Sequence record: NC_070870.1
Source: Escherichia phage phi G17
Length of the DNA: 64,000 bases
Reading direction: 5' to 3' (one strand)
The notes under the pieces are model-generated. The model did not search any database. It saw only the letters and a list, made by a program, of their open reading frames with translations, and was not told the DNA's origin. The position numbers were made by a program, and so were the translations under genes. The first letter of the stretch is position 1, and the number at the start of each line of letters is the position of its first letter. Below, piece after piece: positions 10,607-23,260 of this stretch.

Positions 10607-10669
10607 TACACTGGCTTACTGTAGAGTAGGCTTCCTATATACGATATAAGTTTGAACAGGAAACATGCT

Positions 10670-13600
10670 ATGTCAACATTTGACCGTCTGGCAGGTTTCG
10701 CAGACAGCATCACTAATGCTAAGCAAGTCGATGTCTCTACTGCAACCTCTCAGAAGCAAGCTGCTCAAGGGCAAAGCCCTTTCCAATTAACCCCAGAGAA
10801 TGCTTACAATCTCCAGACTGGACGAGTAGGTAATCTTGGAACTGGTGCATTCGAACCAGGTTCACTTCAGGCTGATTTCACTCAAGCCTCTCCATTAGAA
10901 ATTATTAATAAGTACGGTAATGAGCAAGGTCTACAGATTCTTAATAGCCGAGCTAATGCTGCTGATGTTGTACGTCAGGACTTATCTAAACAGCGTACTA
11001 ACGCAGAAGCATTTGGCGATACTCTTTCTGGTGTTGGTCTTGGTGTTGCTAATACCCTTGGGGGCATTGCTGCTCTTGGCACAGGTCTGGTCAATGATAA
11101 TGCCGGGGCATCCATTGCTTCCGGGATGGATTGGCTGAATGAAGGTGTACGCAATCTCCAGTCTGATGCACTGAACGCTAATCGTAATGTTGTTCAGAAT
11201 CAGAACCAGATTACTGCACAAGAGAACCAGAAACTTTACGAACAAGATATTAAGAATGGGGAGAATGACTTAGTTGCCTCCTTGTCTCGCATTGGTCGTG
11301 ACGCTTTTGATTCTGTTGCTAATACACTTGATAATGGTATGGCTGCTTCCGATGGACTGAGTGAAGGCATTGGTTCCCTCTTTACCGGTGGCCCACTTAT
11401 CCGTGGTGTATCTGCACTTGGTAAAGTAATGGTAGGAGGTGATAAAGCTGTTAAGGGTATTACCTTAGCTGCTGAGTTAGGTTCACGTCCTGCACAGGTT
11501 GCACTGTCTGCCGGTCGTGTTGCTGCACCTGCTGTAGCAATCGGTGGTATGGAAGCTGGTGGTGCATACCAACAGACTGCTTCTGAAATCATGAAGATGT
11601 CCCATCAAGAATTGGCAAGTAAGTCTCCTGTTTACCAACAACATATTGCTGATGGTTTATCTCCTGATGAAGCACGTCGTCAGACTGCATCTGAAACAGG
11701 TATCACTGCTGCTGGCTTAACTGCTCCAGTTGCTGCTGCCACCGGTCCACTGGTATCTCGCTTTGAACTTAACCCACTTAAGGTAGGTTCACTGGCAGGT
11801 GCTGGTTCTAATATGCTGCGTGAAACAGTTGAAGAAGGTATTCAATCCGGCTTCGGACAGTTCGCACAGAACACTGCAATCAAGGAAAATGTTGATGCAT
11901 CCCGTGATACCCTCAAAGGGGTCGGTGAACAAGCAGGTCTGGGTGCACTCTATGGCTTCGGTAGTGCTGGAGTTGCTCAAGCTCCAGGTGCAACTGTTAA
12001 AGCTGCTGGTGCTGCCGTTGCTCCTGCTGTACGTACTACCCTGGCTGGTGCTTCTCTGGTTGGTAATGCATTAGCAAAAGCTGCCTCCCCTATTACTAAC
12101 ATCTTGGTTCAACGTGGCGAAGAAGTTGCTAAGCGTAATGAACAAGCGTCCCCTGTAGCAGATGCTACGGTTAGTGCTGCTGCACAGGAAGCTACTGCTC
12201 AGTCAGAACAAGCACAAGCAACTGTACAGGAAGCAGTAGATGCAATGGACATTACTCCTGAAGAGAAAGCTGCTGCTACTCAATATGCTTCTGACTTAAC
12301 ACAGGCAATGAACTTTGACCCAGTAGAAATAGAACAAGCTAATCCAGCAATCCGTGAAGCTGTTTCTGGTTCCACTAACCGTGTAGAAGCTATTCAGAAG
12401 ATGGCTGACTTGGTTAATACTGCTGAAGACCCTAACGTTCAAATGGAAGCTGCAATCCAGATGTATGACAATATTATGTCCATGGATAGCTTCATTAACC
12501 GTGACCCGGGTGCTCTGGCTAATCTGGAACAAGGTTCTCCTGCTGCTGCAATCGTAGACCAGTTCTCTGGCTTGATGGCTAACGTACAGAATACACCGAA
12601 GGTACTTCGTGCATTCCGTGCTATCCATTCCATGATTCAGGAACAGGCTGAAGCAGGTAAACTGAAAGCTACTGAAGAAGCTAACCAAGCCCAAGCAAAC
12701 AACATTGCTATGGCTGCTGATGTATCTCCAGAAGTGCTGGATGCTGATTCAGTGAACATGGTTCTGAAACACGCTAGCGAAGGTAAGATTACTCTGGGGA
12801 ATCGTCAACGTGCTGCCCTGCAATCGGCTGCTGCTGTCTTACAGGGTGCACGCGAGTTCGACGCTAAAGCAGAAGAACTAGGCTTACGACCTCAAGACAT
12901 TGTTAGTAAACAGATTAAGACCGACGAGTCTCGCTCTAATGAAGGCCAGTACTCTGCGTTGCAACATGCGAAACGCATTCGTTCTGCGTACAACTCTGGT
13001 AACTTCGATTTGGCCTCCGCTTATCTGAACGACTTTATGCAGTTCGCCCAGCACATGCAGAATAAGGTCGGAGCGTTGAATGAGCATCTGGTTTCGGGGA
13101 ATGCGGATAAGAATAAGTCTGTTCACTATCAGGCTCTCTCGCCTTCCCGTGAATGGGTACGTAGTCGTACTGGCCTCGGTGTCAATCCTTACGATACCAA
13201 GTCTGTTAAGTTTGCCCAGCAAGTAGGACTGGAAGCCAAGACCGTAGCTGATATTGCTAACGCACTTGCTACGGCTTACCCGGAGCTTAATGTTTCTCAT
13301 GTGAATGTTACCTCGTTGGATTCACGTCTGGACAAGCCAGCTGCCCAGGTAGTTAAAGAGTTCCGTCAAGGTGGTCTTGATGCCACTCAGTCTCAACAGA
13401 CTAATGAACCAGTGAATCAGGTTGATGAAACTCCTGCACCAGTGCAAGAGACTGCCCCCACTGTACAGCCTAAAGCTGAGCCGGTGGTAGAAAATAAACC
13501 TGCTCCTACTAAGGATACTAGTTCAAAAACAGAAGAAGTCTCTACTACTAAGTCTGAAACAGTGGATGCTACCCTCACTAATGAGGATACCACCCAGGAA

Positions 13601-16600
13601 GTAGCTGAAACTAAAACGGAAATGGAATCAGTGTTCCCTGTCTATAACAATGAAAAAACACCGAACCAGTTCCTGAAAGCATTTACTCTGCCGGAAGAAC
13701 CTAAGTCCCGTACCATTGGTTCTGAATCTCCTTTGACTGATGTTAAGCAAGCACTGTCTTCTGCTGCTCGCTTTGAAGCATTCACTCAAAAAGAAAATAA
13801 CGCTCTCACAGGTGATGTGATGAAACGTTATCAGGACTTGATGGACTTTGGTGAAACACTGAAGACTACTTTGTCTGACCGTCTGGCTAAGTTCCTTGCT
13901 AACAAGAATGTTGGTAAACGTTTTGCAGAAGGTACTGAAGCTAACCGTTGGGTAGGTGGAAAACTGCTGAATATCGTTGAGCAAGATGGTGATACCTTTA
14001 AGTTCAATAACCAGTTGTTAGAGACTGCTGTACTTGCTGGTCTGCAATGGCGACTGACTGCTACGCAGAATGCTGCCGTTAAAGATATGAAAGACGTAGC
14101 TGCTATTACTGGTGTAGAAGCATCTCTGTTACCAGAAGGTATTCTGGCTGAGTTTGAGAATGCTCAGACTCTGGTTGAAGCTACTAACTCACTGGCTCAA
14201 AAGATAGAATCCTATTGGGGTTTGAATCGTAATGCTAATGCACCACTGGGTTATACCAAAGGTATCCCAATGGCAATGGCTACAGAGATTCTGTCTTCCC
14301 TTATTGAGATGGGTGAAGTTAAAGAGTCTATGCTGGATGTGTCTGAAATTGACCCAGCCTCTAATAAGACTGTTGGTCTGTATACCATTGAAAAGCTGGA
14401 TGACAACGATGCTATTAACAAATTCCCTACTGCTATTGAGGAAGCTGTCCTCTTAGAACCAGAAGAGAAAATGTACTTTGGTGATGACATTCCTTCCGTG
14501 GCTCAAACTCAGTTACGTAACCCTGCTGTTAAGAATACCCCTGAACAGAAAGCTGCACTGAAAGCTGAACAGGCTACTGAGTTCCGTGTACACATGCCGA
14601 TGGTTAACTTCTATGAAGCAATGGGCCGTGAAAACATTCTGGAACTGATGGGTGCTGGTACTCTTAACCCTGAGCTACTGAACGTGAATACTGCTAAGTC
14701 ACTGGAAGGTAAAAACCTATCCGTGTCTATGGCATATGATTCTCTGTTCGGTGTTATCAGTCAGGTACGGGAACAAGAAGCAGGACTGGATACTCCTATC
14801 CATTATGGTTACAACATGACCCGTGTCGGTCGTATGCAGATGCTTGGCAAGAATAACCCACAATCCAGTAAACTGGTTCGTGAAGCAATTCTGCCAACCT
14901 TCTCTACTATCGACTTGAGTAATGAAAACAGCCAAACGTTCTCTGACTTCCAGTTAGGTCTGGCTCAGGCATTAGGTATCAAGGTACATAACATGTCCCG
15001 TGAAGCTATGTCTGAAAAGTTGACCAAGGCTCTGGAAGGTAATCTGAAACCTGCTGTTGATATGATGGTTGAGTTTGATAAGTCTGGTCACTTACCTACT
15101 GATGCAGTAGATATTCTGAAGACTTCTCTGGGTGGTGATAAATCCTTCGTAGCTCTCATGGCTCTGATGGAATATGCCCGTTACCTGAACAGTGACGACC
15201 GTGCCAACTTTAATACCCCACTGTACGTTGAAGCTGATGGTGTAACCAACGGCCCAATCAACGCAATGGTATTAATGACTGGTGGTAAGTTCACTCCAGA
15301 CTGGATTAAGAACACTGCTAAAGGTGGTCTTTTCTTTGATAAAGCTGGTAAGACTATGAACGAACATCGTTCACAGGATGACAGTGTTGACTTGTATGAA
15401 GCATCTACCAATGGTCTGCAACAAGCACTGAATGAGTTACGTACTACTTACCGTAACAACGTTCCTGTTATGAACCAGATGAATCATCTCCAGAAGATAA
15501 TGGACCTGTTCATTAAAGACTTTAACCTGAATGAAGACGGTACTCTGGACCTGAAACGTGGTATCGCTAAGAACCCACTCACCATTACCATCTATGGTTC
15601 TGGTGCACGTGGTATTGCTGGCAAGATGGTTAGTGCAATTACTGATACCATCTATGAACGCTTCAGCGACGTTCTGCAAGCACGTGCTGCTGACCCTAGC
15701 ATTTCCCCAGCTATGGCAATGTTTGGTAAGGAGGCTGCGTCTGAGGCCGATGCTCAGGCTATGCTGGATACTTTCCTTACTTCTATGGAAGCACTGACAG
15801 GTAATGTTCCAGTTATGCGTAAGGGTGAATTGTCTATTCAGCAAGCAGAAGGTGCACTGACTGGTAAGTTAGACCCTCAGAAGTTTACTGTATCTGGCAA
15901 TGCTCTGAAGAACTTACAAGAGAACATGCTCCACCTGTTCGTTGAACCAATGCGTACCGGTATCCAGAATACTGTTGGTGAAGGTCTGATGCACTCTACT
16001 GAGAACTTGCAGAAGGCTACCCAGATTCAATCTCTGGTATTGCAGGATATGTTCCAACAAGCAGTACAGGCTAAGCTGGCAGAAAAAGAAAATGACCCAA
16101 CCTGGAAGAAGGGTGATTTCTTAACTCAGAAAGAACTGAATGAAATCCAGGAATCATTATCTCCACTGGCCCCAATGATTGAGACTGGTTCACAGACTTT
16201 CTACATTGCTGGTAGTGAGAATACTGATGTTGCTAACCAAGTACTGGCTACCAACTTAGATGACCGTATGCGTGTGCCAATGAGCATCTATGCTCCTTCA
16301 CAAGCAGGTGTTGCAGGTATTCCATTTATGACCATCGGTACTGGTGATGGCATGATGATGCAGACTCTTTCTACTATGAAAGGTGCTCCGAAGAATACCC
16401 TGAAAATCTTTGATGGTATGAACATTGGTATCAATGACATCACTGATGCAAGTCGTAAAGCAAATGAGGCTGTATACACTTCTTGGCAGGGGAACCCTAT
16501 CAAGAATGTTTACGACTCCTACGCTAAGTTCATGAAGAATGTAGACTTCAGCAAACTGTCTGATGAAACTAAACAGGCTATCGCTAAGTCTGCTCTGGAA

Positions 16601-19600
16601 TATGACCAGCGTGAAGGTGCTACAGATGACCTGTTACGTGTAGGTGCTGAGCAGATTGAACGTAACCTGCGTAACATTGCTCTGGGTGTAGATATTCGCC
16701 ACAAAGTAATGAACCAGGTACAGACCACTGTTGACCAGATGGCTGCTGTAGGTGCTCCTTATGTGAACAACGGTAAAATCTCTCTGGAAGGTCTGACGGT
16801 AGACCAGCAAGTAGCTAAGCTGAACGAACTGTTTGATGCTGAATTAAACAAGCGTCGTGATGCAGTACGTGCTGCTAAAGCAGAACCAGTGAAAGAAGTA
16901 CCGGCAATGGAACAAGTTGGTCGTGTGCTTAAGTCAGGTGTACGTCTGCTGTCCAATACTGCCATTACTAAACTGGCTAAAGAGATGTCCCCAGAACAGC
17001 AAGCAGTATTGAAAGAAGTACAGAACTCCCTTGCTGCTAAAGACTACAAGGTTGTTTATGGTACTCCTGCTCAACTGGATGCTTATGCTATTGAGAAGAA
17101 CATTACTCGCCCAGCACCGGAAGATATTGAAGCTGCTGAAGCAGGTAATGCATACGGCTGGACTAACTTTGATGATAAGACTATCTACTTAGTTACCCCT
17201 TCCTTAGAGACTCTGGTTCATGAATTGGTACATGCTTCTACTTTTGAATCTGTACTGGCTCACTACGAGGGTACTCCTAATGAAGCAGTCCAGAATATTG
17301 AAGACTTGATGAACCAGTTCCGTGCTCTGGATGTTAAGGATGAATCCCCGGCAGTACGTGAAGCATATGCTGATGCACTCAATACCATTAACGGTCACTT
17401 GTCTAATGGTTTCATTGAGCCAGCAATGTCTAAAGCTGCTGCACTGAATGAGTACATGGCATGGGGCTTAACCAACCGTGAACTGATTGGTAAGCAGAAG
17501 AAGACCACTGCACTGAAAGCTATGGTTCAGTCTGTGTATGAAGCAATTAAGCGTCTGGTATTTGGTCGTAAGAAAGCACCTGTTAATGCAGATGATATGT
17601 TCTCTGGCTTACTGTTTAACTCATCTGTAGTTATGCGTGGACAGGCTCCTACTGCTGCTGTATCCAAGGACACTACCTTGTTCCATAGCAAAGCATATGG
17701 TGACAATACTCGTCTGGAAGAGTTAGGGCAGACCTTTGATAAGCTGATTACTAACTACATTGGTTCTGAACCAGTACAGCAAGTAATCCGTAAAGGTAAG
17801 TTTTCTGATGCAGTAGTGAATGCAACTAAAGTAACCCGTGATGTTCAGGCTCATGGCTTTACTATGAATATGCAGGAACAGCGACTGTTCACTAATATTG
17901 TTGCTGCTTTGGCTACTGAAGCTGCTATTAGTCCGGCTGCTCTTTCTCGTGCACAGGAATATTATGCACATGTTACTAAGAATCTGACTGTTGAAGCATT
18001 CATGACAGACCCGGATAGTACTAACCCTGCTGACCGTTATTATGCACAGCAGAAGTTCGATACCATCATGGGTGCTAATAATATTGAGTATGATGCACAG
18101 GGTCGTTCTTCCTTACTGCCTACCTTTGTGGCTCTGGCAATGGTAAGTGAAGATGTACGTAATGTACTGGCTGACATTCCTGTTATGAAAGCAGATAAGC
18201 AATCCGGTAATACCGTTGATGCAATGCTGACTAACATTGGTACTGCTGCAATGGCTAGCCTGAATGCTCGTGTAGCAGGTGACACTAAAGCTACTAACGT
18301 ACAGGAAGGTATGGATGCACTGGCTCAGACAATCATGCAGACTAGTCTTAATGCACAGTCATTCTATGATTCCATTGCTACCCCTAGTGGTAATGCTATC
18401 GACCGTGCTAACCAGTATCTGGTGGACTCTATTGATGTACTGTCCACCCGTGCTTTAGATGGTGCACGTGAGGTTGCAGCTAATACCAAGAATCCGTTGG
18501 TTAAGGGTGCTGCTCATGCTGCTCAACTGGTAGCTGCCATTGCTACAGAGAAGAATGGTGCAATCGTAGCTGAAGGTGTTATGGCTGCAATGAACCAGGG
18601 TAAAGCATGGCAACCTTTCCATGACCTGGTTAATGACTTAACCGGTCGTACTAAGAGCAATGCTTCTGTGTATGATTTAATTAAAGCAGTTCGTGCACAG
18701 GTACAGGCTGACCGTCAACAGTTCCGTGAACATCTGCCTACCACTATCGCATCTAAGTTCAGCCGTAAGCTGACCAATGATGAATGGAAAGCAATGCACA
18801 CTGGTATGGGTAAAACTGATTTGGCTGTTCTGCGTGACACTATGTCTCTGGCTGAAATCCGTGACTTGCTGACTGACCAGAAGATTGTTGACCGTGAAGT
18901 GAATAAGCTGGAAGCAGATTTGCAGAAGCAAGCTGGTCGTAACTGGCCCCTGATTAATCGTAAATCTAAGCAACTGGCTCAGTACATGATTAACGGTACA
19001 GTCGGTAATAACCTGCTGCGTAATGCTACTGCAATCTCCCGTATGCTGGGTGAACGTCAGGCTGCTCGCTCTACCGTAGATGTAGCTCAACTGGATAAAC
19101 TGATTACTCTGTATGCACTGGAAGCAATGAACAAGAAAGACCGTGAGATGTTATCTTCACTGGCTCAATCAGAAGTTGATGGAATGGACTTTGTTACTTC
19201 TTATCTGGTTGGTCAGCGTAAAGATGAAATGGCTAAAGCCAAATCTGATATGCGTGCAACCCTGAACCAGTACAAAGGGCATATCCCTAGCGAGAACAAA
19301 CAGGGTGTTAATCTGATTGTTGCTGAAGATAGTCAGTTTGCTGATTTGATTGAGAAGTCTTATGTACGTCTGGGTACTTATCAGGGTAGCTCTGCTAACC
19401 GTGGTCCGGCACGTAGCTACTACTTCGCACCAGTACAGGCACAGGCTCCATTCTCACAGGGTATCCTACAGAACGTTCGTAATACTGCTGGTGGTGTAGA
19501 CCTCGGCACAGGTTTTACGATGGGTTCAATGGTGGCTGGTCGTATTACTGACAAGCCTTCTGTAGACCGTATTACTAAAGCACTGGCTCGTGGTGAGCGT

Positions 19601-21022
19601 GGTAATGAACCACTGCTGCCTGTATATGATGACAAAGGTAATGTGGTTGCCTATGAGCAATCAATTGACCCTAACATGCTGAAGCACATTGAAGGCGAGA
19701 ATCACCTTGCCCGTGCAATCGGTGTATGGCGTGGTCGTCAGGTTGAAGAAGCTAAGGCACAGCGTTTCAACGATATGCTGATTGAGAACCTGCATAGCAT
19801 GTACGAGAACGACATTAAAATGTCTGCCTCTAATAAGTCCCAGTACGTGAACCTTCTTGGTTCTAAACTGGACCCAGTAACTGCTGATGCGCTTAAGCTG
19901 ATGAACAGTGAAACTCGTCAGAAAGCAGAGAGCCTGTTTGGTGAGGGCGAACTATGGGTACGTCGTGACATGCTGAATGATGCACTAGGTTATCGTGCAG
20001 CTTCAGTTGGTGATGCATGGTCTGGTAACTCTCGTTGGTCCCCGGAAACTCTGGATACCTTCAAGAAAGCTATGCTGGGTGTATTCGGCAACCGTGCTTA
20101 TAAGTACACAATGGGTGGAGAGAACCTGGTTCAGAACTTAGTTAAAGAAGCCAAGACTCTGATTGTAGTTAAGTCAGTAGTCGTACCTGCTGTTAACTTC
20201 TTGGCCAACCTTTACCAGATGGTTGCTCGTGGTGTACCGGTTAAGAACATTGCTAAGAGCATTCCACAGAAAACTGCTGAGATTAACCAGTACCTGAAAT
20301 CTCGTCTGCGTCAGGTGGATGCAGAAGCAGAATTACGTGCAGCTACTAACCCGAACCAGATTCGTAAACTTAAGGCTGAGATTCAGTCCATCTCTGATAG
20401 CCATAAGCGTATGAGTATCTGGCCCCTGTTGGAAGCTGGTGAGTTCTCTTCAATTGCAGATGCTGGTATTGGTCGTGATGACATCCTGATTACTGAGGGT
20501 AAGATTCACGAATACATGGATAAGCTGGCTGATAAGTTGCCCAAGTCTGTACGTACTGCTGGTCGTTATGCACTTATCACTAAGGATACTGCTCTGTTCC
20601 AGGGCATCCAGAAGACGGTTGAGTACTCTGACTTTATTGCTAAAGCAATCATCTACGATGAACTGACCCAGCGTAAAGGTAAGACTCGTGAAGAGGCACT
20701 TGGTCGTGTAACGGAAGAGTTCGTTAACTATGACCGTCTGCCTGGTCGCTTCCGTGGATATATGGAAAGCGTTGGTTTAATGTGGTTCTACAACTTTAAG
20801 ATTCGTTCTGCAAAAGTTGCAGTATCCATGATTCGTAATAACCCAGTACATGCAGCAATGGCTATGTTGGCTCCAACTCCTACCATGTTTGGTAATGTTG
20901 GCTTACCTATTCAGGACAACATCTTCAGCATTGCAGCACAGGGTAACATGGGTTACTCGTGGGGCTTTGGTCAGGGACTTCGTGCTCACAACCTTAACCC
21001 TTGGCTGAACTTAACTAACTAA
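10670..21022 (+). CDS. Virion-encapsidated RNA polymerase (vRNAP, about 3450 aa)
   Basis: Giant ORF; central region carries T7-like motifs: VEADGVTNGPINAM (motif A-like), RGIAKNPLTITIYGSGARG (motif B, R/K...YG), KIFDGMNIG (motif C-like); track start at 10652 is TTG, an ATG at 10670 has AGGA 9 nt upstream. Confidence 0.85.
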   Translation: MSTFDRLAGFADSITNAKQVDVSTATSQKQAAQGQSPFQLTPENAYNLQTGRVGNLGTGAFEPGSLQADFTQASPLEIINKYGNEQGLQILNSRANAADVVRQDLSKQRTNAEAFGDTLSGVGLGVANTLGGIAALGTGLVNDNAGASIASGMDWLNEGVRNLQSDALNANRNVVQNQNQITAQENQKLYEQDIKNGENDLVASLSRIGRDAFDSVANTLDNGMAASDGLSEGIGSLFTGGPLIRGVSALGKVMVGGDKAVKGITLAAELGSRPAQVALSAGRVAAPAVAIGGMEAGGAYQQTASEIMKMSHQELASKSPVYQQHIADGLSPDEARRQTASETGITAAGLTAPVAAATGPLVSRFELNPLKVGSLAGAGSNMLRETVEEGIQSGFGQFAQNTAIKENVDASRDTLKGVGEQAGLGALYGFGSAGVAQAPGATVKAAGAAVAPAVRTTLAGASLVGNALAKAASPITNILVQRGEEVAKRNEQASPVADATVSAAAQEATAQSEQAQATVQEAVDAMDITPEEKAAATQYASDLTQAMNFDPVEIEQANPAIREAVSGSTNRVEAIQKMADLVNTAEDPNVQMEAAIQMYDNIMSMDSFINRDPGALANLEQGSPAAAIVDQFSGLMANVQNTPKVLRAFRAIHSMIQEQAEAGKLKATEEANQAQANNIAMAADVSPEVLDADSVNMVLKHASEGKITLGNRQRAALQSAAAVLQGAREFDAKAEELGLRPQDIVSKQIKTDESRSNEGQYSALQHAKRIRSAYNSGNFDLASAYLNDFMQFAQHMQNKVGALNEHLVSGNADKNKSVHYQALSPSREWVRSRTGLGVNPYDTKSVKFAQQVGLEAKTVADIANALATAYPELNVSHVNVTSLDSRLDKPAAQVVKEFRQGGLDATQSQQTNEPVNQVDETPAPVQETAPTVQPKAEPVVENKPAPTKDTSSKTEEVSTTKSETVDATLTNEDTTQEVAETKTEMESVFPVYNNEKTPNQFLKAFTLPEEPKSRTIGSESPLTDVKQALSSAARFEAFTQKENNALTGDVMKRYQDLMDFGETLKTTLSDRLAKFLANKNVGKRFAEGTEANRWVGGKLLNIVEQDGDTFKFNNQLLETAVLAGLQWRLTATQNAAVKDMKDVAAITGVEASLLPEGILAEFENAQTLVEATNSLAQKIESYWGLNRNANAPLGYTKGIPMAMATEILSSLIEMGEVKESMLDVSEIDPASNKTVGLYTIEKLDDNDAINKFPTAIEEAVLLEPEEKMYFGDDIPSVAQTQLRNPAVKNTPEQKAALKAEQATEFRVHMPMVNFYEAMGRENILELMGAGTLNPELLNVNTAKSLEGKNLSVSMAYDSLFGVISQVREQEAGLDTPIHYGYNMTRVGRMQMLGKNNPQSSKLVREAILPTFSTIDLSNENSQTFSDFQLGLAQALGIKVHNMSREAMSEKLTKALEGNLKPAVDMMVEFDKSGHLPTDAVDILKTSLGGDKSFVALMALMEYARYLNSDDRANFNTPLYVEADGVTNGPINAMVLMTGGKFTPDWIKNTAKGGLFFDKAGKTMNEHRSQDDSVDLYEASTNGLQQALNELRTTYRNNVPVMNQMNHLQKIMDLFIKDFNLNEDGTLDLKRGIAKNPLTITIYGSGARGIAGKMVSAITDTIYERFSDVLQARAADPSISPAMAMFGKEAASEADAQAMLDTFLTSMEALTGNVPVMRKGELSIQQAEGALTGKLDPQKFTVSGNALKNLQENMLHLFVEPMRTGIQNTVGEGLMHSTENLQKATQIQSLVLQDMFQQAVQAKLAEKENDPTWKKGDFLTQKELNEIQESLSPLAPMIETGSQTFYIAGSENTDVANQVLATNLDDRMRVPMSIYAPSQAGVAGIPFMTIGTGDGMMMQTLSTMKGAPKNTLKIFDGMNIGINDITDASRKANEAVYTSWQGNPIKNVYDSYAKFMKNVDFSKLSDETKQAIAKSALEYDQREGATDDLLRVGAEQIERNLRNIALGVDIRHKVMNQVQTTVDQMAAVGAPYVNNGKISLEGLTVDQQVAKLNELFDAELNKRRDAVRAAKAEPVKEVPAMEQVGRVLKSGVRLLSNTAITKLAKEMSPEQQAVLKEVQNSLAAKDYKVVYGTPAQLDAYAIEKNITRPAPEDIEAAEAGNAYGWTNFDDKTIYLVTPSLETLVHELVHASTFESVLAHYEGTPNEAVQNIEDLMNQFRALDVKDESPAVREAYADALNTINGHLSNGFIEPAMSKAAALNEYMAWGLTNRELIGKQKKTTALKAMVQSVYEAIKRLVFGRKKAPVNADDMFSGLLFNSSVVMRGQAPTAAVSKDTTLFHSKAYGDNTRLEELGQTFDKLITNYIGSEPVQQVIRKGKFSDAVVNATKVTRDVQAHGFTMNMQEQRLFTNIVAALATEAAISPAALSRAQEYYAHVTKNLTVEAFMTDPDSTNPADRYYAQQKFDTIMGANNIEYDAQGRSSLLPTFVALAMVSEDVRNVLADIPVMKADKQSGNTVDAMLTNIGTAAMASLNARVAGDTKATNVQEGMDALAQTIMQTSLNAQSFYDSIATPSGNAIDRANQYLVDSIDVLSTRALDGAREVAANTKNPLVKGAAHAAQLVAAIATEKNGAIVAEGVMAAMNQGKAWQPFHDLVNDLTGRTKSNASVYDLIKAVRAQVQADRQQFREHLPTTIASKFSRKLTNDEWKAMHTGMGKTDLAVLRDTMSLAEIRDLLTDQKIVDREVNKLEADLQKQAGRNWPLINRKSKQLAQYMINGTVGNNLLRNATAISRMLGERQAARSTVDVAQLDKLITLYALEAMNKKDREMLSSLAQSEVDGMDFVTSYLVGQRKDEMAKAKSDMRATLNQYKGHIPSENKQGVNLIVAEDSQFADLIEKSYVRLGTYQGSSANRGPARSYYFAPVQAQAPFSQGILQNVRNTAGGVDLGTGFTMGSMVAGRITDKPSVDRITKALARGERGNEPLLPVYDDKGNVVAYEQSIDPNMLKHIEGENHLARAIGVWRGRQVEEAKAQRFNDMLIENLHSMYENDIKMSASNKSQYVNLLGSKLDPVTADALKLMNSETRQKAESLFGEGELWVRRDMLNDALGYRAASVGDAWSGNSRWSPETLDTFKKAMLGVFGNRAYKYTMGGENLVQNLVKEAKTLIVVKSVVVPAVNFLANLYQMVARGVPVKNIAKSIPQKTAEINQYLKSRLRQVDAEAELRAATNPNQIRKLKAEIQSISDSHKRMSIWPLLEAGEFSSIADAGIGRDDILITEGKIHEYMDKLADKLPKSVRTAGRYALITKDTALFQGIQKTVEYSDFIAKAIIYDELTQRKGKTREEALGRVTEEFVNYDRLPGRFRGYMESVGLMWFYNFKIRSAKVAVSMIRNNPVHAAMAMLAPTPTMFGNVGLPIQDNIFSIAAQGNMGYSWGFGQGLRAHNLNPWLNLTN

Positions 21023-21072: not shown

Positions 21073-21276
21073 TCATCTTTCATTAGGAAGTTTTCCTGTT
21101 TCGATAATACTTCTCAGAGTTTCCTCTGTAGGGAACCACAGAAATGAGAAGTAGAGTTTCTTAGCCACGTAACGAGTTACTCCCAGCTTCTCTGCGATTT
21201 CATCGAATGAATATGTACGGACGGTATTGTTGAGAATGGCTTCACGAACAACAGAGGTAATAGATACTTGTGTCAT
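21073..21276 (-). CDS. Small putative HTH DNA-binding protein (67 aa)
   Basis: ATG at 21276 with AGGAAA upstream; helix-turn-helix-like segment FDEIAEKLGVTRYVAKK. Confidence 0.45.
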   Translation of the reverse strand: MTQVSITSVVREAILNNTVRTYSFDEIAEKLGVTRYVAKKLYFSFLWFPTEETLRSIIETGKLPNER

Positions 21277-21300
21277 AATAGTTTCCTACAGATATGAGAA

Positions 21301-21330
21301 AGCCCTCACTAGGAGGGCTTGTTTTGTTTT
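21301..21330. promoter_or_regulatory. Hairpin AGCCCTC-actag-GAGGGCT followed by GTTTTGTTTT (terminator-like, strand ambiguous)
   Basis: 7-bp stem; lies about 25 nt upstream of minus-strand gene start 21276; shares stem/loop core with hairpin at 43732. Confidence 0.35.
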
Positions 21331-21400
21331 GGCTTCTAGAGCCTTACCACATGTCGGGTAGTTCAGTACCTTTCGGTAAAAACTACCTTACACCTGTTTG

Positions 21401-21793
21401 TTAAATTGTGCAACCACCACCGTCACATGTGTTGTTTTCTGCAAAGGAAGCCAGTGCCTTAGCAGTCTCCTCTTTCTCATGCAGTGCCTGACGTAGCAGG
21501 TAACCTTCTAATTCCCAAATCTTATTGAATGCATTTTCATATGCATAACGACGACCTACCCACTCATCGTAGATAGCTGGGTCAACACAGGCAGATACGC
21601 CTTCAACTTTGAAGCCATTTTCCAGGATGATAGTGCAATAGGTTACTAGGCTCAGATTAGCCAAATCATCTTCCGGGATTGCAGAAGGGTTAGCGAATCC
21701 AGACTTCACTGCATCAGCACCATTGAAATAGTAGACGCTTTTAATTTTAGCTTCGATTGATTCTTTACTTACTGTTGCCATTATTAGCCTCAT
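21401..21793 (-). CDS. Hypothetical protein (130 aa)
   Basis: ORF, minus strand, downstream of terminator 21950..21976. Confidence 0.45.
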   Translation of the reverse strand: MRLIMATVSKESIEAKIKSVYYFNGADAVKSGFANPSAIPEDDLANLSLVTYCTIILENGFKVEGVSACVDPAIYDEWVGRRYAYENAFNKIWELEGYLLRQALHEKEETAKALASFAENNTCDGGGCTI

Positions 21794-21923
21794 AGAGTGG
21801 TTTGAGTTTGTACTTAAACATGACTGCGTTGTTATAGGCTACGCTACCTGCAAACACCAAGGACTTACGTCCTCGGTTATCCGTTACCTCATAGGCATAC
21901 GGGGTTAAGATTAGGTCAATCAT
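21765..21923 (-). CDS. Possible small ORF (about 52 aa from the ATG at 21923; track start 21950 is TTG inside the terminator T-run)
   Basis: Weak: short, overlaps next gene start. Confidence 0.2.
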   Translation of the reverse strand: MIDLILTPYAYEVTDNRGRKSLVFAGSVAYNNAVMFKYKLKPLYEANNGNSK

Positions 21924-21949
21924 CTTGGATGTCCAATTAACAATATTCA

Positions 21950-21976
21950 AATAAAAAAGTCCCTCCGAAGAGGGAC
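21950..21976 (-). terminator. Intrinsic terminator (minus strand) GTCCCTC-ttcg-GAGGGAC + TTTTTTAT
   Basis: Perfect 7-bp stem, UUCG-type loop, 6-T run on minus strand. Confidence 0.7.
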
Positions 21977-22135
21977 TTAGTAGCTTTTAATAGATAGCTG
22001 TATTTGAGCATTATAGTCTGCTCATACTCACACTCTTCTGTCGAAGAATATGTTTACAATATCTAGAGTGCCGGACTGTCTTACCGGCATTGTCTTTAGA
22101 GTGCTAAGCAATCAGGACTATGTTCTCTATTAATG

Positions 22136-22211
22136 GGTGCCCACTACTGGATTTGAACCAGTGACTTTCCGATTATTAGTCGGTTGCTTTCCCCGTCTAA
22201 GCTAAGTGGAC
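22136..22211 (-). tRNA. tRNA gene (minus strand), apparent anticodon AAT (Ile-like?), CCA not fully encoded
   Basis: By-eye cloverleaf: acceptor GTCCACT/AGTGGGC (one G-T pair), D-stem GCTT/AAGC, anticodon stem CCGA/TCGG with loop CTAATAA, T-arm ACTGG-TTCAAAT-CCAGT, discriminator A. Confidence 0.6.
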
Positions 22212-23260
22212 ATAATAGGGTGAGTCATGCCAGGCTCTAACTGGCTCCTTCTTCGCAATCCTTACATACCCCTACATAATTATTGCGTTAAGCTTTTTTG
22301 TTTAAGTTTAAGTGAAGGTGTTCTTGCTGACTCATAATACTTTCAATTCAGAGTAGCACTCACACAGGATTGTGCCTTTGAATACCGGGAAGTATAAACG
22401 AGTGCTACTTTGAATTGGTTCCCCGTTTCTAATACACGGACGGGGACACTCCATGGTCGTTTGATAATCAGGACGACTCACTCCTGACTGAGGTTACGCT
22501 GTTAGGCGACCATCAGATACGCTTCTTCGTTTGCATTTATGTTATTGGTTCGTTTCTAAAAAACCGCATAATCGCTACGAAAACTATCGGGGAGTGCACT
22601 AGCTCTGGGCCACGCTCGTGGACATCGACCTTCCTTCCACAGCTAATCAACTAATACACTCCCCTGTTAGGAAGCTGCCAGGGATTCCACCTGGCTCCAT
22701 CTGTTTTTAAAGTCACTCAGATATCGTCTGGACTTCCCATTGCCGTGGGATGTTGATAGAAATGAGAGGTTCTATCGGGGAGTACACTTACTCGACTGGT
22801 TAAACTATATCTATCCAGCTCCCCAGCAAATGTACTCCCCGATAGTCCATAATAGGAGGGAGGGGACGAATCCTCCCTTTATACCCTATGTTGCATGTAA
22901 GATCTAACAATTCGATGCTGTAGATAGCGATACTATCCGACATTAAACCCAGCCCCTGGGGGCTTGTGTGATTATAATGCTCAACATTGAGCGGTTAGTT
23001 GATAAGGGATCTGAAGCCTTATCCCAAAGATAATAACCTTTGGGATATAGCCTAAGATTCAGAAATGGCCCCTATATGGAGAGGCCATTGATTAACCCGA
23101 ATGTTGCTTTACATTTGCTGTGATAACCAGTTCTTAAAATAGTCTGTCTGACGGATGGGGAGCCACCCCTAGCGTCAGTGCCATACGGCAAAGATTAAGT
23201 TAAGAAAGGTTATGATAGGAGTTCCTATCTCAAAGGATTCTGACAGAACCCTTCACGATA
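22212..23260. other. ORF-free, highly structured region with repeated motif CTATCGGGGAGT(G/A)CACT and multiple long inverted repeats
   Basis: No ORF of 60 aa or more on either strand for about 1.05 kb; 15-bp perfect inverted repeat 22772..22786 / 22831..22845; paralogous copy at 22584..22600 with partner CACTCCCC at 22657..22664; many further stem-loops. Confidence 0.5.

Follow-up and report, generated by a model that had tools for sequence, protein, structure and literature searches.

What is a transfer RNA gene with an adenine at the wobble position doing in a bacteriophage of Escherichia coli? The 64,000 nucleotides of Escherichia phage phi G17 analysed here (the whole stretch, hereafter "the window") raise this question at a small spacer on the minus strand, where an original prediction, made from the letters of the sequence, had placed a tRNA with an apparent AAT anticodon. 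In bacterial chromosomes, ANN anticodons other than ACG are rare exceptions (PMC8007984, PMC11066159), and the ANN anticodons missing from bacteria are missing from phage tRNA sets too and have been called "prohibited", Arg-ACG excepted (PMC8007984); the literature that we searched offers no usable survey counts of ANN anticodons in phages. The reading that we prefer, and to which we give an even chance, is that of an isoleucine-charged tRNA whose A34 stays unmodified and which specifically decodes AUU. We present this reading together with its competitors, each at the point where the data bear on it.

The phage is a Gamaleyavirus (Schitoviridae, Enquatrovirinae; the N4-like G7C / PhAPEC5/7 / Bp4 / ECBP1 group), i.e. 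an N4-like podovirus of E. coli. Over the 3 kb around the tRNA, BLAST searches find many Escherichia and Shigella Gamaleyavirus phages with 90-94% identity.

A canonical tRNA gene under purifying selection

The only tRNA that ARAGORN reports in the 64 kb is a tRNA-Ile at 22134-22212 (-), anticodon aat, and the Rfam tRNA model RF00005 (gathering score 29) matches 22138-22211 (-) end to end with 61.6 bits (E 6.2e-11 for the whole window). The 79-nt ARAGORN call has an acceptor register slightly shifted with respect to that of Rfam, and the anticodon is identical in both. The features that matter for the discussion are the following (all on the minus strand).

21950..21978 (-): intrinsic terminator with a 9-bp GC-rich stem, a UUCG loop and a U run (terminator scan)
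22129..22137 (-): 3' trailer of the tRNA, CCCAUUAAU (direct reading)
22138..22211 (-): tRNA-Ile(AAU) gene, 74 nt, from G1 to the discriminator A73 (ARAGORN, Rfam, fold, covariation)
22173..22179 (-): anticodon loop of 7 nt, C32-U33-A34-A35-U36-A37-A38 (direct reading and Rfam alignment)
22175-22177 (-): anticodon AAU (AAT in DNA; direct reading)
22212..22219 (-): 5' leader (CCCUAUUAU|G) and cassette junction (alignment of relatives)
22220..22334 (-): ultra-conserved 113-nt tRNA-like block, directly upstream of the tRNA (pi 0.01-0.03; fold)

The original prediction of a single tRNA in this region therefore holds for canonical tRNAs, with tRNA-like elements lying directly upstream; the extent that it gave, 22136-22211, contains the tRNA itself and takes in, at the 22136 end, two bases of the 3' trailer. 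Its Ile-like character agrees with the tRNA-Ile call of ARAGORN.

According to the Rfam alignment, the acceptor stem has 7 bp, beginning with G1-C72 and including one wobble pair (U2.G71), the D stem has 4 bp, and the anticodon stem has five positions with an A27.A43 mismatch on top. The conserved core is present (U8, A14, G18-G19, U33, C48, G53-C61 and the T-loop UUCAAAU), G15 being replaced by U in three variants. The T arm (ACUGG-UUCAAAU-CCAGU) and the 7-bp acceptor stem that had been folded by eye match this alignment exactly, and the minimum-energy fold calculated without constraints is also the cloverleaf; in fold, score and core nucleotides, the RNA has what RF00005 describes for a canonical elongator tRNA. 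CCA is not encoded after A73 (relatives with a CAT anticodon, described below, encode ACCA), so that 3' trimming and CCA addition by the host would be needed.

Three routes led to homologues: BLAST, the neighbouring gp48-like protein, and pattern scans of metagenome, viral and genome collections in which the anticodon was left free. The resulting set comprises 26 copies with 12 distinct sequences, and all of them have AAT. The backbone recovered by the anticodon-free scans always carries AAT, the sole other match being an unrelated tRNA-Phe on a very large contig. The whole anticodon loop is identical in 12/12 distinct variants; this invariance is partly built in for some loci, recovered with patterns in which the T arm and the loop flanks were given, and the loci derived from BLAST and from the protein, which are free of this bias, give the same result.

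The tRNA is far less variable than what surrounds it. In a comparison of 16 distinct relatives, 11/74 sites of the tRNA vary and its nucleotide diversity (pi) is 0.047. The third codon positions of the gp48-like gene have a pi of 0.32, the 3' trailer has 0.25 and the adjacent ORFs have 0.19-0.23; the tRNA lies about five-fold below its flanks. The stem changes that did occur are compensatory: at pair 2:71 the window has U.G and relatives U-A or C-G, pair 5:68 alternates between A-U and G.U, and one lineage within the genus has changed C29-G41 to U29-A41. In an alignment of 17 sequences (five of them CAT-anticodon relatives), 95.5% of the cells are paired, a share that falls to 21-43% with the 3' partners slid; 11/21 pairs show changes on both sides, and none of 500 shuffles reaches the observed values. 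Low diversity and compensatory substitutions are the opposite of the relaxed constraint or broken fold of a tRNA pseudogene. The tRNA is genuine, canonical and under purifying selection.

These data also settle whether the register of the loop was misread, so that the anticodon would not be AAU. The rarity of A34 is all that speaks for such an error, whereas ARAGORN and Infernal agree on the 7-nt loop (CTAATAA in DNA, as first read), U33 and A37 are canonical, the stem pairs covary (28-42, 29-41, 30-40 and 31-39 are backed by covariation, while 27-43 is mismatched in 15/17 sequences), and the 12 sequence variants all give the same loop. A misreading is refuted, and ARAGORN, one of the two programs that had been proposed as a check, assigns the same anticodon. 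The possibility of a suppressor, also raised at the outset, has no support, since AAU pairs with a sense codon; that of a decoy is taken up below with the main rival.

Kinship with tRNA-Ile2 and the state of the wobble base

Beyond the genus, the closest relatives of the tRNA, with 76-83% identity along most of its length, carry CAT anticodons without exception and share with it loop positions 32-33 and 35-38. They include tRNAs of E. coli prophages and plasmids labelled tRNA-Ile by PGAP, one of which adjoins a tRNA-Arg(TCT), the tRNA of the N4-like Enterobacter phage EcP1, and further copies in Aeromonas, Yersinia and Acinetobacter phages. No copy of this backbone with AAT was found in the GTDB representative set or in complete E. 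coli genomes, and a search of the window for remnants of sister tRNAs found none. The closest known tRNA in sequence, at 77-83% along nearly all of the molecule, is thus tRNA-Ile2, the CAU tRNA that receives lysidine from TilS and reads AUA (E. coli prophage ileZ-like genes, EcP1), with which the phage tRNA has in common the loop CU-N-AUAA, C4-G69, U12-A23, C29-G41 and A73, as well as the setting in a phage tRNA island. It differs from tRNA-Ile2 in having A34 instead of C34, no encoded CCA, an A-U or G.U instead of a C-G at pair 5:68, and AUU instead of AUA as its expected codon. Since C34, the substrate of TilS, is replaced by A34 in the window as in each of the 12 variants, the phage tRNA is a descendant of tRNA-Ile2 and functionally not a member of it. 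The simplest reading of this kinship would be a single C34 to A34 change in a lysidine-type, AUA-reading ancestor. With A34 in place of C34, TilS would be unable to act, MetRS would be unable to mischarge the tRNA, and the codon would shift from AUA to AUU; in other words, the tRNA would no longer depend on TilS, nor run the risk, inherent in an unmodified CAU anticodon, of being mischarged by MetRS.

The same substitution could instead have inactivated a tRNA-Ile2, the gene now persisting as a decaying relic by hitch-hiking. Such a relic would account for an anticodon class that is normally absent from bacteria and phages (PMC8007984), and it fits with the lack of an encoded CCA, the degenerate state of nearby tRNA-like genes and the absence of the gene from about 30% of the relatives (see below). 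We nevertheless consider it very unlikely, as a relic is hard to reconcile with a diversity five-fold below that of the flanks, a high Rfam score, and compensatory stems and invariant loops conserved across lineages that are about 25-30% apart at neutral sites.

If the tRNA is functional, which amino acid does it carry? The determinants of isoleucine identity in E. coli are A73, A35, U36, (t6)A37, C4-G69, the 12-23 pair and C29-G41 (PMC9976931), with G34 or lysidine-34 as the wobble determinant for IleRS. By direct reading, all these elements are present in the phage tRNA (the 12-23 pair being U12-A23) and position 34 alone differs; among the variants, one lineage (U29-A41) and two sequences with G73 depart from the set. 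Because every known E. coli identity element except position 34 has been kept, we infer that host IleRS would charge this tRNA with isoleucine; the literature searched holds no kinetics or other data on E. coli IleRS with A34.

The original prediction had put forward an inosine-modified Ile-like tRNA. Inosine at position 34 would make it a eukaryote-like tRNA-Ile(IAU) that reads AUU, AUC and the rare AUA without TilS. There are some arguments in favour of this idea: IAU is the normal eukaryotic solution (PMC8007984), the ancestor read AUA, the codon ATA is about twice as frequent in the phage as in our host sample (figures below), and loop positions 32, 33, 37 and 38 are, by direct reading against PMC11066159, those of tRNA-Arg2. 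However, the TadA-dependent editing sites of E. coli all lie in UACG within an Arg2-like stem-loop (PMC13170351), and the phage tRNA has UAAU at the same place. Moreover, Schmitt, Tittle and Fisk (2024, PMC11066159) placed 15 ANN anticodons in an orthogonal tRNA with a tRNA-Arg2-matching loop in E. coli, and saw inosine only with ACG, AUG and AAG; with AAU there was none, and this tRNA read AUU (4.5%), AUC (0.43%) and AUG (0.27%), AUA being below detection. The loop context, CU-ANN-AA, is common to that tRNA and the phage tRNA. A six-frame search of the 64-kb window found no deaminase zinc motif (H/CAE...PCxxC); this is a weak test, and about 8 kb of the genome lie outside the window. The phage tRNA therefore has the encoded A34 of a wobble-inosine tRNA, with neither the UACG context nor, in the window, a cognate deaminase of the phage's own. 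Since TadA needs UACG, the engineered AAU tRNA is unmodified and the window has no deaminase motif, inosine seems to us very unlikely. On all these grounds, the most likely state is an unmodified A34 in an AUU-selective decoder.

An accessory cassette in an island of tRNA-like RNAs

The tRNA lies in a minus-strand spacer with gp46/gp47-like genes on one side and gp48/gp49-like genes on the other, and the giant virion RNA polymerase gene (10652-21022, +) is convergent with it. The terminator at 21950..21978 (-), about 160 nt 3' of the tRNA on the same strand, is more conserved than its surroundings (pi 0.09 vs 0.25), and the PhAPEC7 and G7C records have a terminator annotated at the corresponding element. 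A scan for sigma-70 promoters gave fewer matches than in shuffled sequence, with no convincing one upstream of the tRNA. We think that the tRNA would be transcribed on the strand of the early and middle genes, within a small RNA island ending at this terminator.

Throughout the subfamily the gp47-gp48 spacer is a tRNA island whose content is specific to each lineage. In N4 itself (NC_008720; locus L052, 32451-33130) the gap contains tRNAs Asn-GTT, Ser-TGA, Thr-TGT and Pro-TGG (50-78 bits), none of which is annotated in the RefSeq record, and in Klebsiella-type relatives this spacer contains tRNAs for Asn, Gln, Asp and Tyr. In the genus considered here, 54 records carry the conserved 113-nt block upstream and were taken as the base for counting: tRNA-Ile(AAU) is present in 37 of them, an 85-nt variant takes its place in 3, and the block alone was matched in 14, including the type phage G7C and Bas96 (in which the 85-nt variant lies beyond an insertion). 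The idea that the tRNA is universal in the genus had to be given up, as the intact tRNA is missing at the locus in 17/54 records (about 30%). The gene is dispensable, at least in the laboratory, since related records do without it.

The boundaries of these absences are informative. St11Ph5 lacks exactly the cassette (22129-22219 (-) in the window), its place in G7C is taken by some 130 nt of unrelated sequence, and other relatives have 80-130-nt insertions on either side of the tRNA, or other tRNA-like modules inserted at the 5' junction. The tRNA is thus a discrete accessory cassette. A motif, ACCC(T)ATTA(A)T, is repeated 3' of the upstream block and 3' of the tRNA, and this repetition suggests that modules may be gained and lost by recombination between the junctions.

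The constant module of the array is the 113-nt block, found in the 54 phage records and more conserved than the tRNA itself (pi 0.01-0.03, vs about 0.25 at neutral sites). It folds (z = -3.7) into a 7-bp closing stem, a T-arm-like hairpin (GCCAG-UUAGAGC-CUGGC) and an extended body, and has the same TATTAT|G leader and A-CCC trailer as the tRNA; no Rfam family matches it. We also considered whether it could be a promoter or leader common to the tRNA islands of other genera, but it is absent from the loci of N4 and other Enquatrovirinae.

Further upstream, a tmRNA-like element occupies 22455-22728 (-), with sub-threshold Rfam matches to permuted tmRNA (26.9 bits) and beta-proteobacterial tmRNA. 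It contains a tag-like frame at 22504-22536 (-), preceded by CAUAAAU, that reads ANEEAYLMVA* in the window and ANDDVVLMAA* or ANDDVILMAA* in relatives, always ten codons and a stop; in one pair of relatives the frames differ only by synonymous Ala codons. ARAGORN makes no tmRNA call here, a canonical alanine-accepting tRNA-like domain could not be defined in the element, and we found no description of it in the literature searched. In the interval between this element and the 113-nt block there is a long inverted repeat at 22344-22417 (-), with 18-nt arms (17/18 complementary) and a 38-nt loop. Another conserved non-coding block, at about 22990-23190 (-), is present in all relatives (pi 0.014-0.07); it has no ORF and no assigned RNA family, and forms three strong hairpins, e.g. 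AUCCCAAAG-GUUAUUAU-CUUUGGGAU.

Other members of the genus have further tRNA-like RNAs at this locus. The 85-nt RNA found in the tRNA-Ile slot of some Gamaleyaviruses (Bas96, locus L012, 1444-1528; HK2; pSb-1) has the same acceptor and T arms as the tRNA-Ile and different D and anticodon regions. The Bas96 copy could be taken for a decayed tRNA-Ile; it is instead a distinct RNA widespread in other phages, about 92% identical to a "tRNA-OTHER" of Salmonella and E. coli Vi01-like phages (153 records) and found in more than 100 Vi01-like Ackermannviridae; ARAGORN makes no call for this RNA. A "tRNA-Undet" lies directly upstream of the tRNA-Ile in UE-M6 (locus L002, 2522-2594) and also in loci L007, L036-L038 and L043; it scores 42.8 bits as a tRNA, encodes ACCA, receives a 2-nt anticodon from ARAGORN, and has an anticodon arm with an apparent 8-nt loop, CUAG-UAAACCAA-CUAG. 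Finally, a "tRNA-Ala(cgc)" and a "tRNA-Cys(aca)" are annotated, or called by ARAGORN, in Bp4 (locus L009, 372-443 and 735-813), and likewise in ECBP1 and St11Ph5. Neither matches the Rfam tRNA model at E <= 0.01, the two calls flank the tmRNA-like tag frame, and the T arm of the "Cys" matches that of tmRNA; both probably represent tRNA-like domains or fragments, not true tRNAs. Accordingly, the Cys-ACA of Bp4 and the UE phages, which would have been a second A34 tRNA in the genus, was dropped: it fails the Rfam tRNA model at that threshold, and the sole match is that of its T arm, to tmRNA models.

Possible roles in codon supply or counter-defence, and known systems

How would an AUU-specific tRNA serve the phage? 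In the scenario that we prefer, the primary transcript would be processed by the host, with RNase P cutting the 5' end, the 3' end being trimmed and CCA added, and host IleRS would then attach isoleucine. A34, remaining unmodified, would form a Watson-Crick pair with AUU, read AUC about ten times less well, and not read AUA, so that the tRNA would act as a dedicated AUU decoder supplementing or backing up host tRNA-Ile1(GAU) during infection.

Codon usage, whose comparison between phage and host had been proposed as a check, was computed from greedy ORF calls in the window and from an E. coli sample of 20 core genes. ATT, ATC and ATA account for 57, 32 and 11% of isoleucine codons in the phage window and for 53, 42 and 5.5% in the E. 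coli sample, and ATA occurs 6.0 times per 1000 codons in the former and 3.0 times in the latter. ATT is the commonest isoleucine codon of the phage (31 per 1000), and ATY is the sole weak two-fold box in which the phage prefers T (0.64, vs 0.38-0.57 for TTY, TAY, AAY and GAY). It would be tempting to see here a co-adaptation to an AUU-specific tRNA. We dropped this argument as specific evidence because N4, which lacks tRNA-Ile(AAU), prefers ATT even more (a T fraction of 0.73 in ATY, against 0.64 in the window phage). Codon usage is therefore compatible with an AUU decoder and is not evidence of co-adaptation.

Other observations count against a decoder as well: AUU is already read in the host by tRNA-Ile1, which is not known to be limiting, the phages can do without the gene, and CCA is not encoded. 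The company of non-canonical tRNA-like and tmRNA-like RNAs hints that the island may not be there for ordinary codon supply. This is why we keep, as the main rival, a role outside decoding or in counter-defence, the tRNA being either a nuclease-resistant spare or decoy, or a structural or processing module of the island (RNase P/Z punctuation). We regard this rival as possible, if rather doubtful. It would fit a variable accessory cassette in a hypervariable spacer, the aberrant tRNA-like RNAs and the tmRNA-like tag frame alongside, the lack of support for codon supply in the N4 control, and the anti-defence-type genes annotated in the neighbourhood in relatives (anti-CRISPR; Thoeris anti-defence 2-like DUF2829 gp49). 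Evasion of tRNA-targeting defences by phage tRNAs has been documented (PMC10264068, PMC11555353, PMC11464382). On the other hand, we found no phage-defence nuclease directed against tRNA-Ile in the literature searched, a pure processing signal would need neither an invariant anticodon loop nor the full isoleucine identity set, and a spare tRNA would still have to decode, so that this explanation overlaps with that of an AUU decoder.

As to the genes on the flanks of the RNA island (21073-21950 (-) in the window), their annotations in relatives are a Thoeris anti-defence 2-like / DUF2829 protein, which is the gp49 homologue, and anti-CRISPR proteins. The gp47-gp48 spacer may be part of an accessory or counter-defence region.

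One can go one step further and suppose, tentatively and with no great confidence, that the whole cassette array (the tRNA-Ile as one module, beside the 113-nt tRNA-like RNA, the tmRNA-like tag RNA, the tRNA with the 8-nt loop, and the 85-nt RNA shared with Ackermannviridae) consists of non-canonical translation RNAs that would protect or reprogram translation, for example against defences that target tRNAs or stall ribosomes. A34 might then have been selected for being invisible to host enzymes and nucleases acting at position 34, and not for codon supply.

Returning to the AUU decoder, the systems with which it can be compared each share only part of its features. Eukaryotic cytosolic tRNA-Ile has the same genomically encoded anticodon for isoleucine, AAU, which becomes IAU (PMC8007984); it is deaminated by ADAT2/3, reads AUU, AUC and AUA, and belongs to an unrelated sequence lineage. 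The best functional analogue on offer is the engineered M. jannaschii orthogonal AAU tRNA (PMC11066159), which has the same anticodon and CU-ANN-AA loop in the same host translation system, but is artificial: its body is a different one and an orthogonal synthetase loads it with Tyr, whereas the body of the phage tRNA is of the Ile2 type and charging would fall to host IleRS. The exceptional chromosomal ANN tRNAs of bacteria replace the GNN isoacceptor, serve four-codon boxes and are partly inosine-modified; the tRNA described here, by contrast, is encoded by a phage, comes on top of the host GAU tRNA and belongs to the split Ile/Met box, in which misreading of AUG would be costly.

The island itself resembles that of phage T4, whose tRNA cluster is interspersed with co-transcribed tRNA-like stable RNAs of unknown function, and where some tRNA genes end without CCA, leaving trimming and CCA addition to the host. 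T4 has eight canonical tRNAs, including an AUA-reading tRNA-Ile, whereas the window phage has one, with a non-standard anticodon.

The existence of the gene is not new. It is already annotated as tRNA-Ile(AAT), and many genome papers on therapeutic phages list it without comment, although its annotation in GenBank is inconsistent (tRNA-Ile, tRNA-Xle or nothing). What is new is its Ile2-type ancestry, the evidence for selection, its nature as a cassette, and the link to experimental data on decoding by A34. The gene is small and dispensable, and the finding nevertheless contradicts a textbook generalisation: a "prohibited" A34 anticodon, in the split Ile/Met box, has been kept by selection in dozens of E. 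coli phages. It may illustrate a route by which a phage tRNA escapes dependence on the host modification enzyme TilS. It also provides a natural and genetically tractable test of unmodified A34 in vivo (AUU selectivity, AUG misreading, tolerance by IleRS, exclusion by TadA), for which the sister phages without the cassette are natural controls.

A last observation concerns other rare codons. The phage has no tRNA for AGA/AGG or ATA, and its use of the rare Arg codons AGA and AGG together is about 3.5 times that of the host sample (7.5 vs 2.1 per 1000), that of ATA being twofold.
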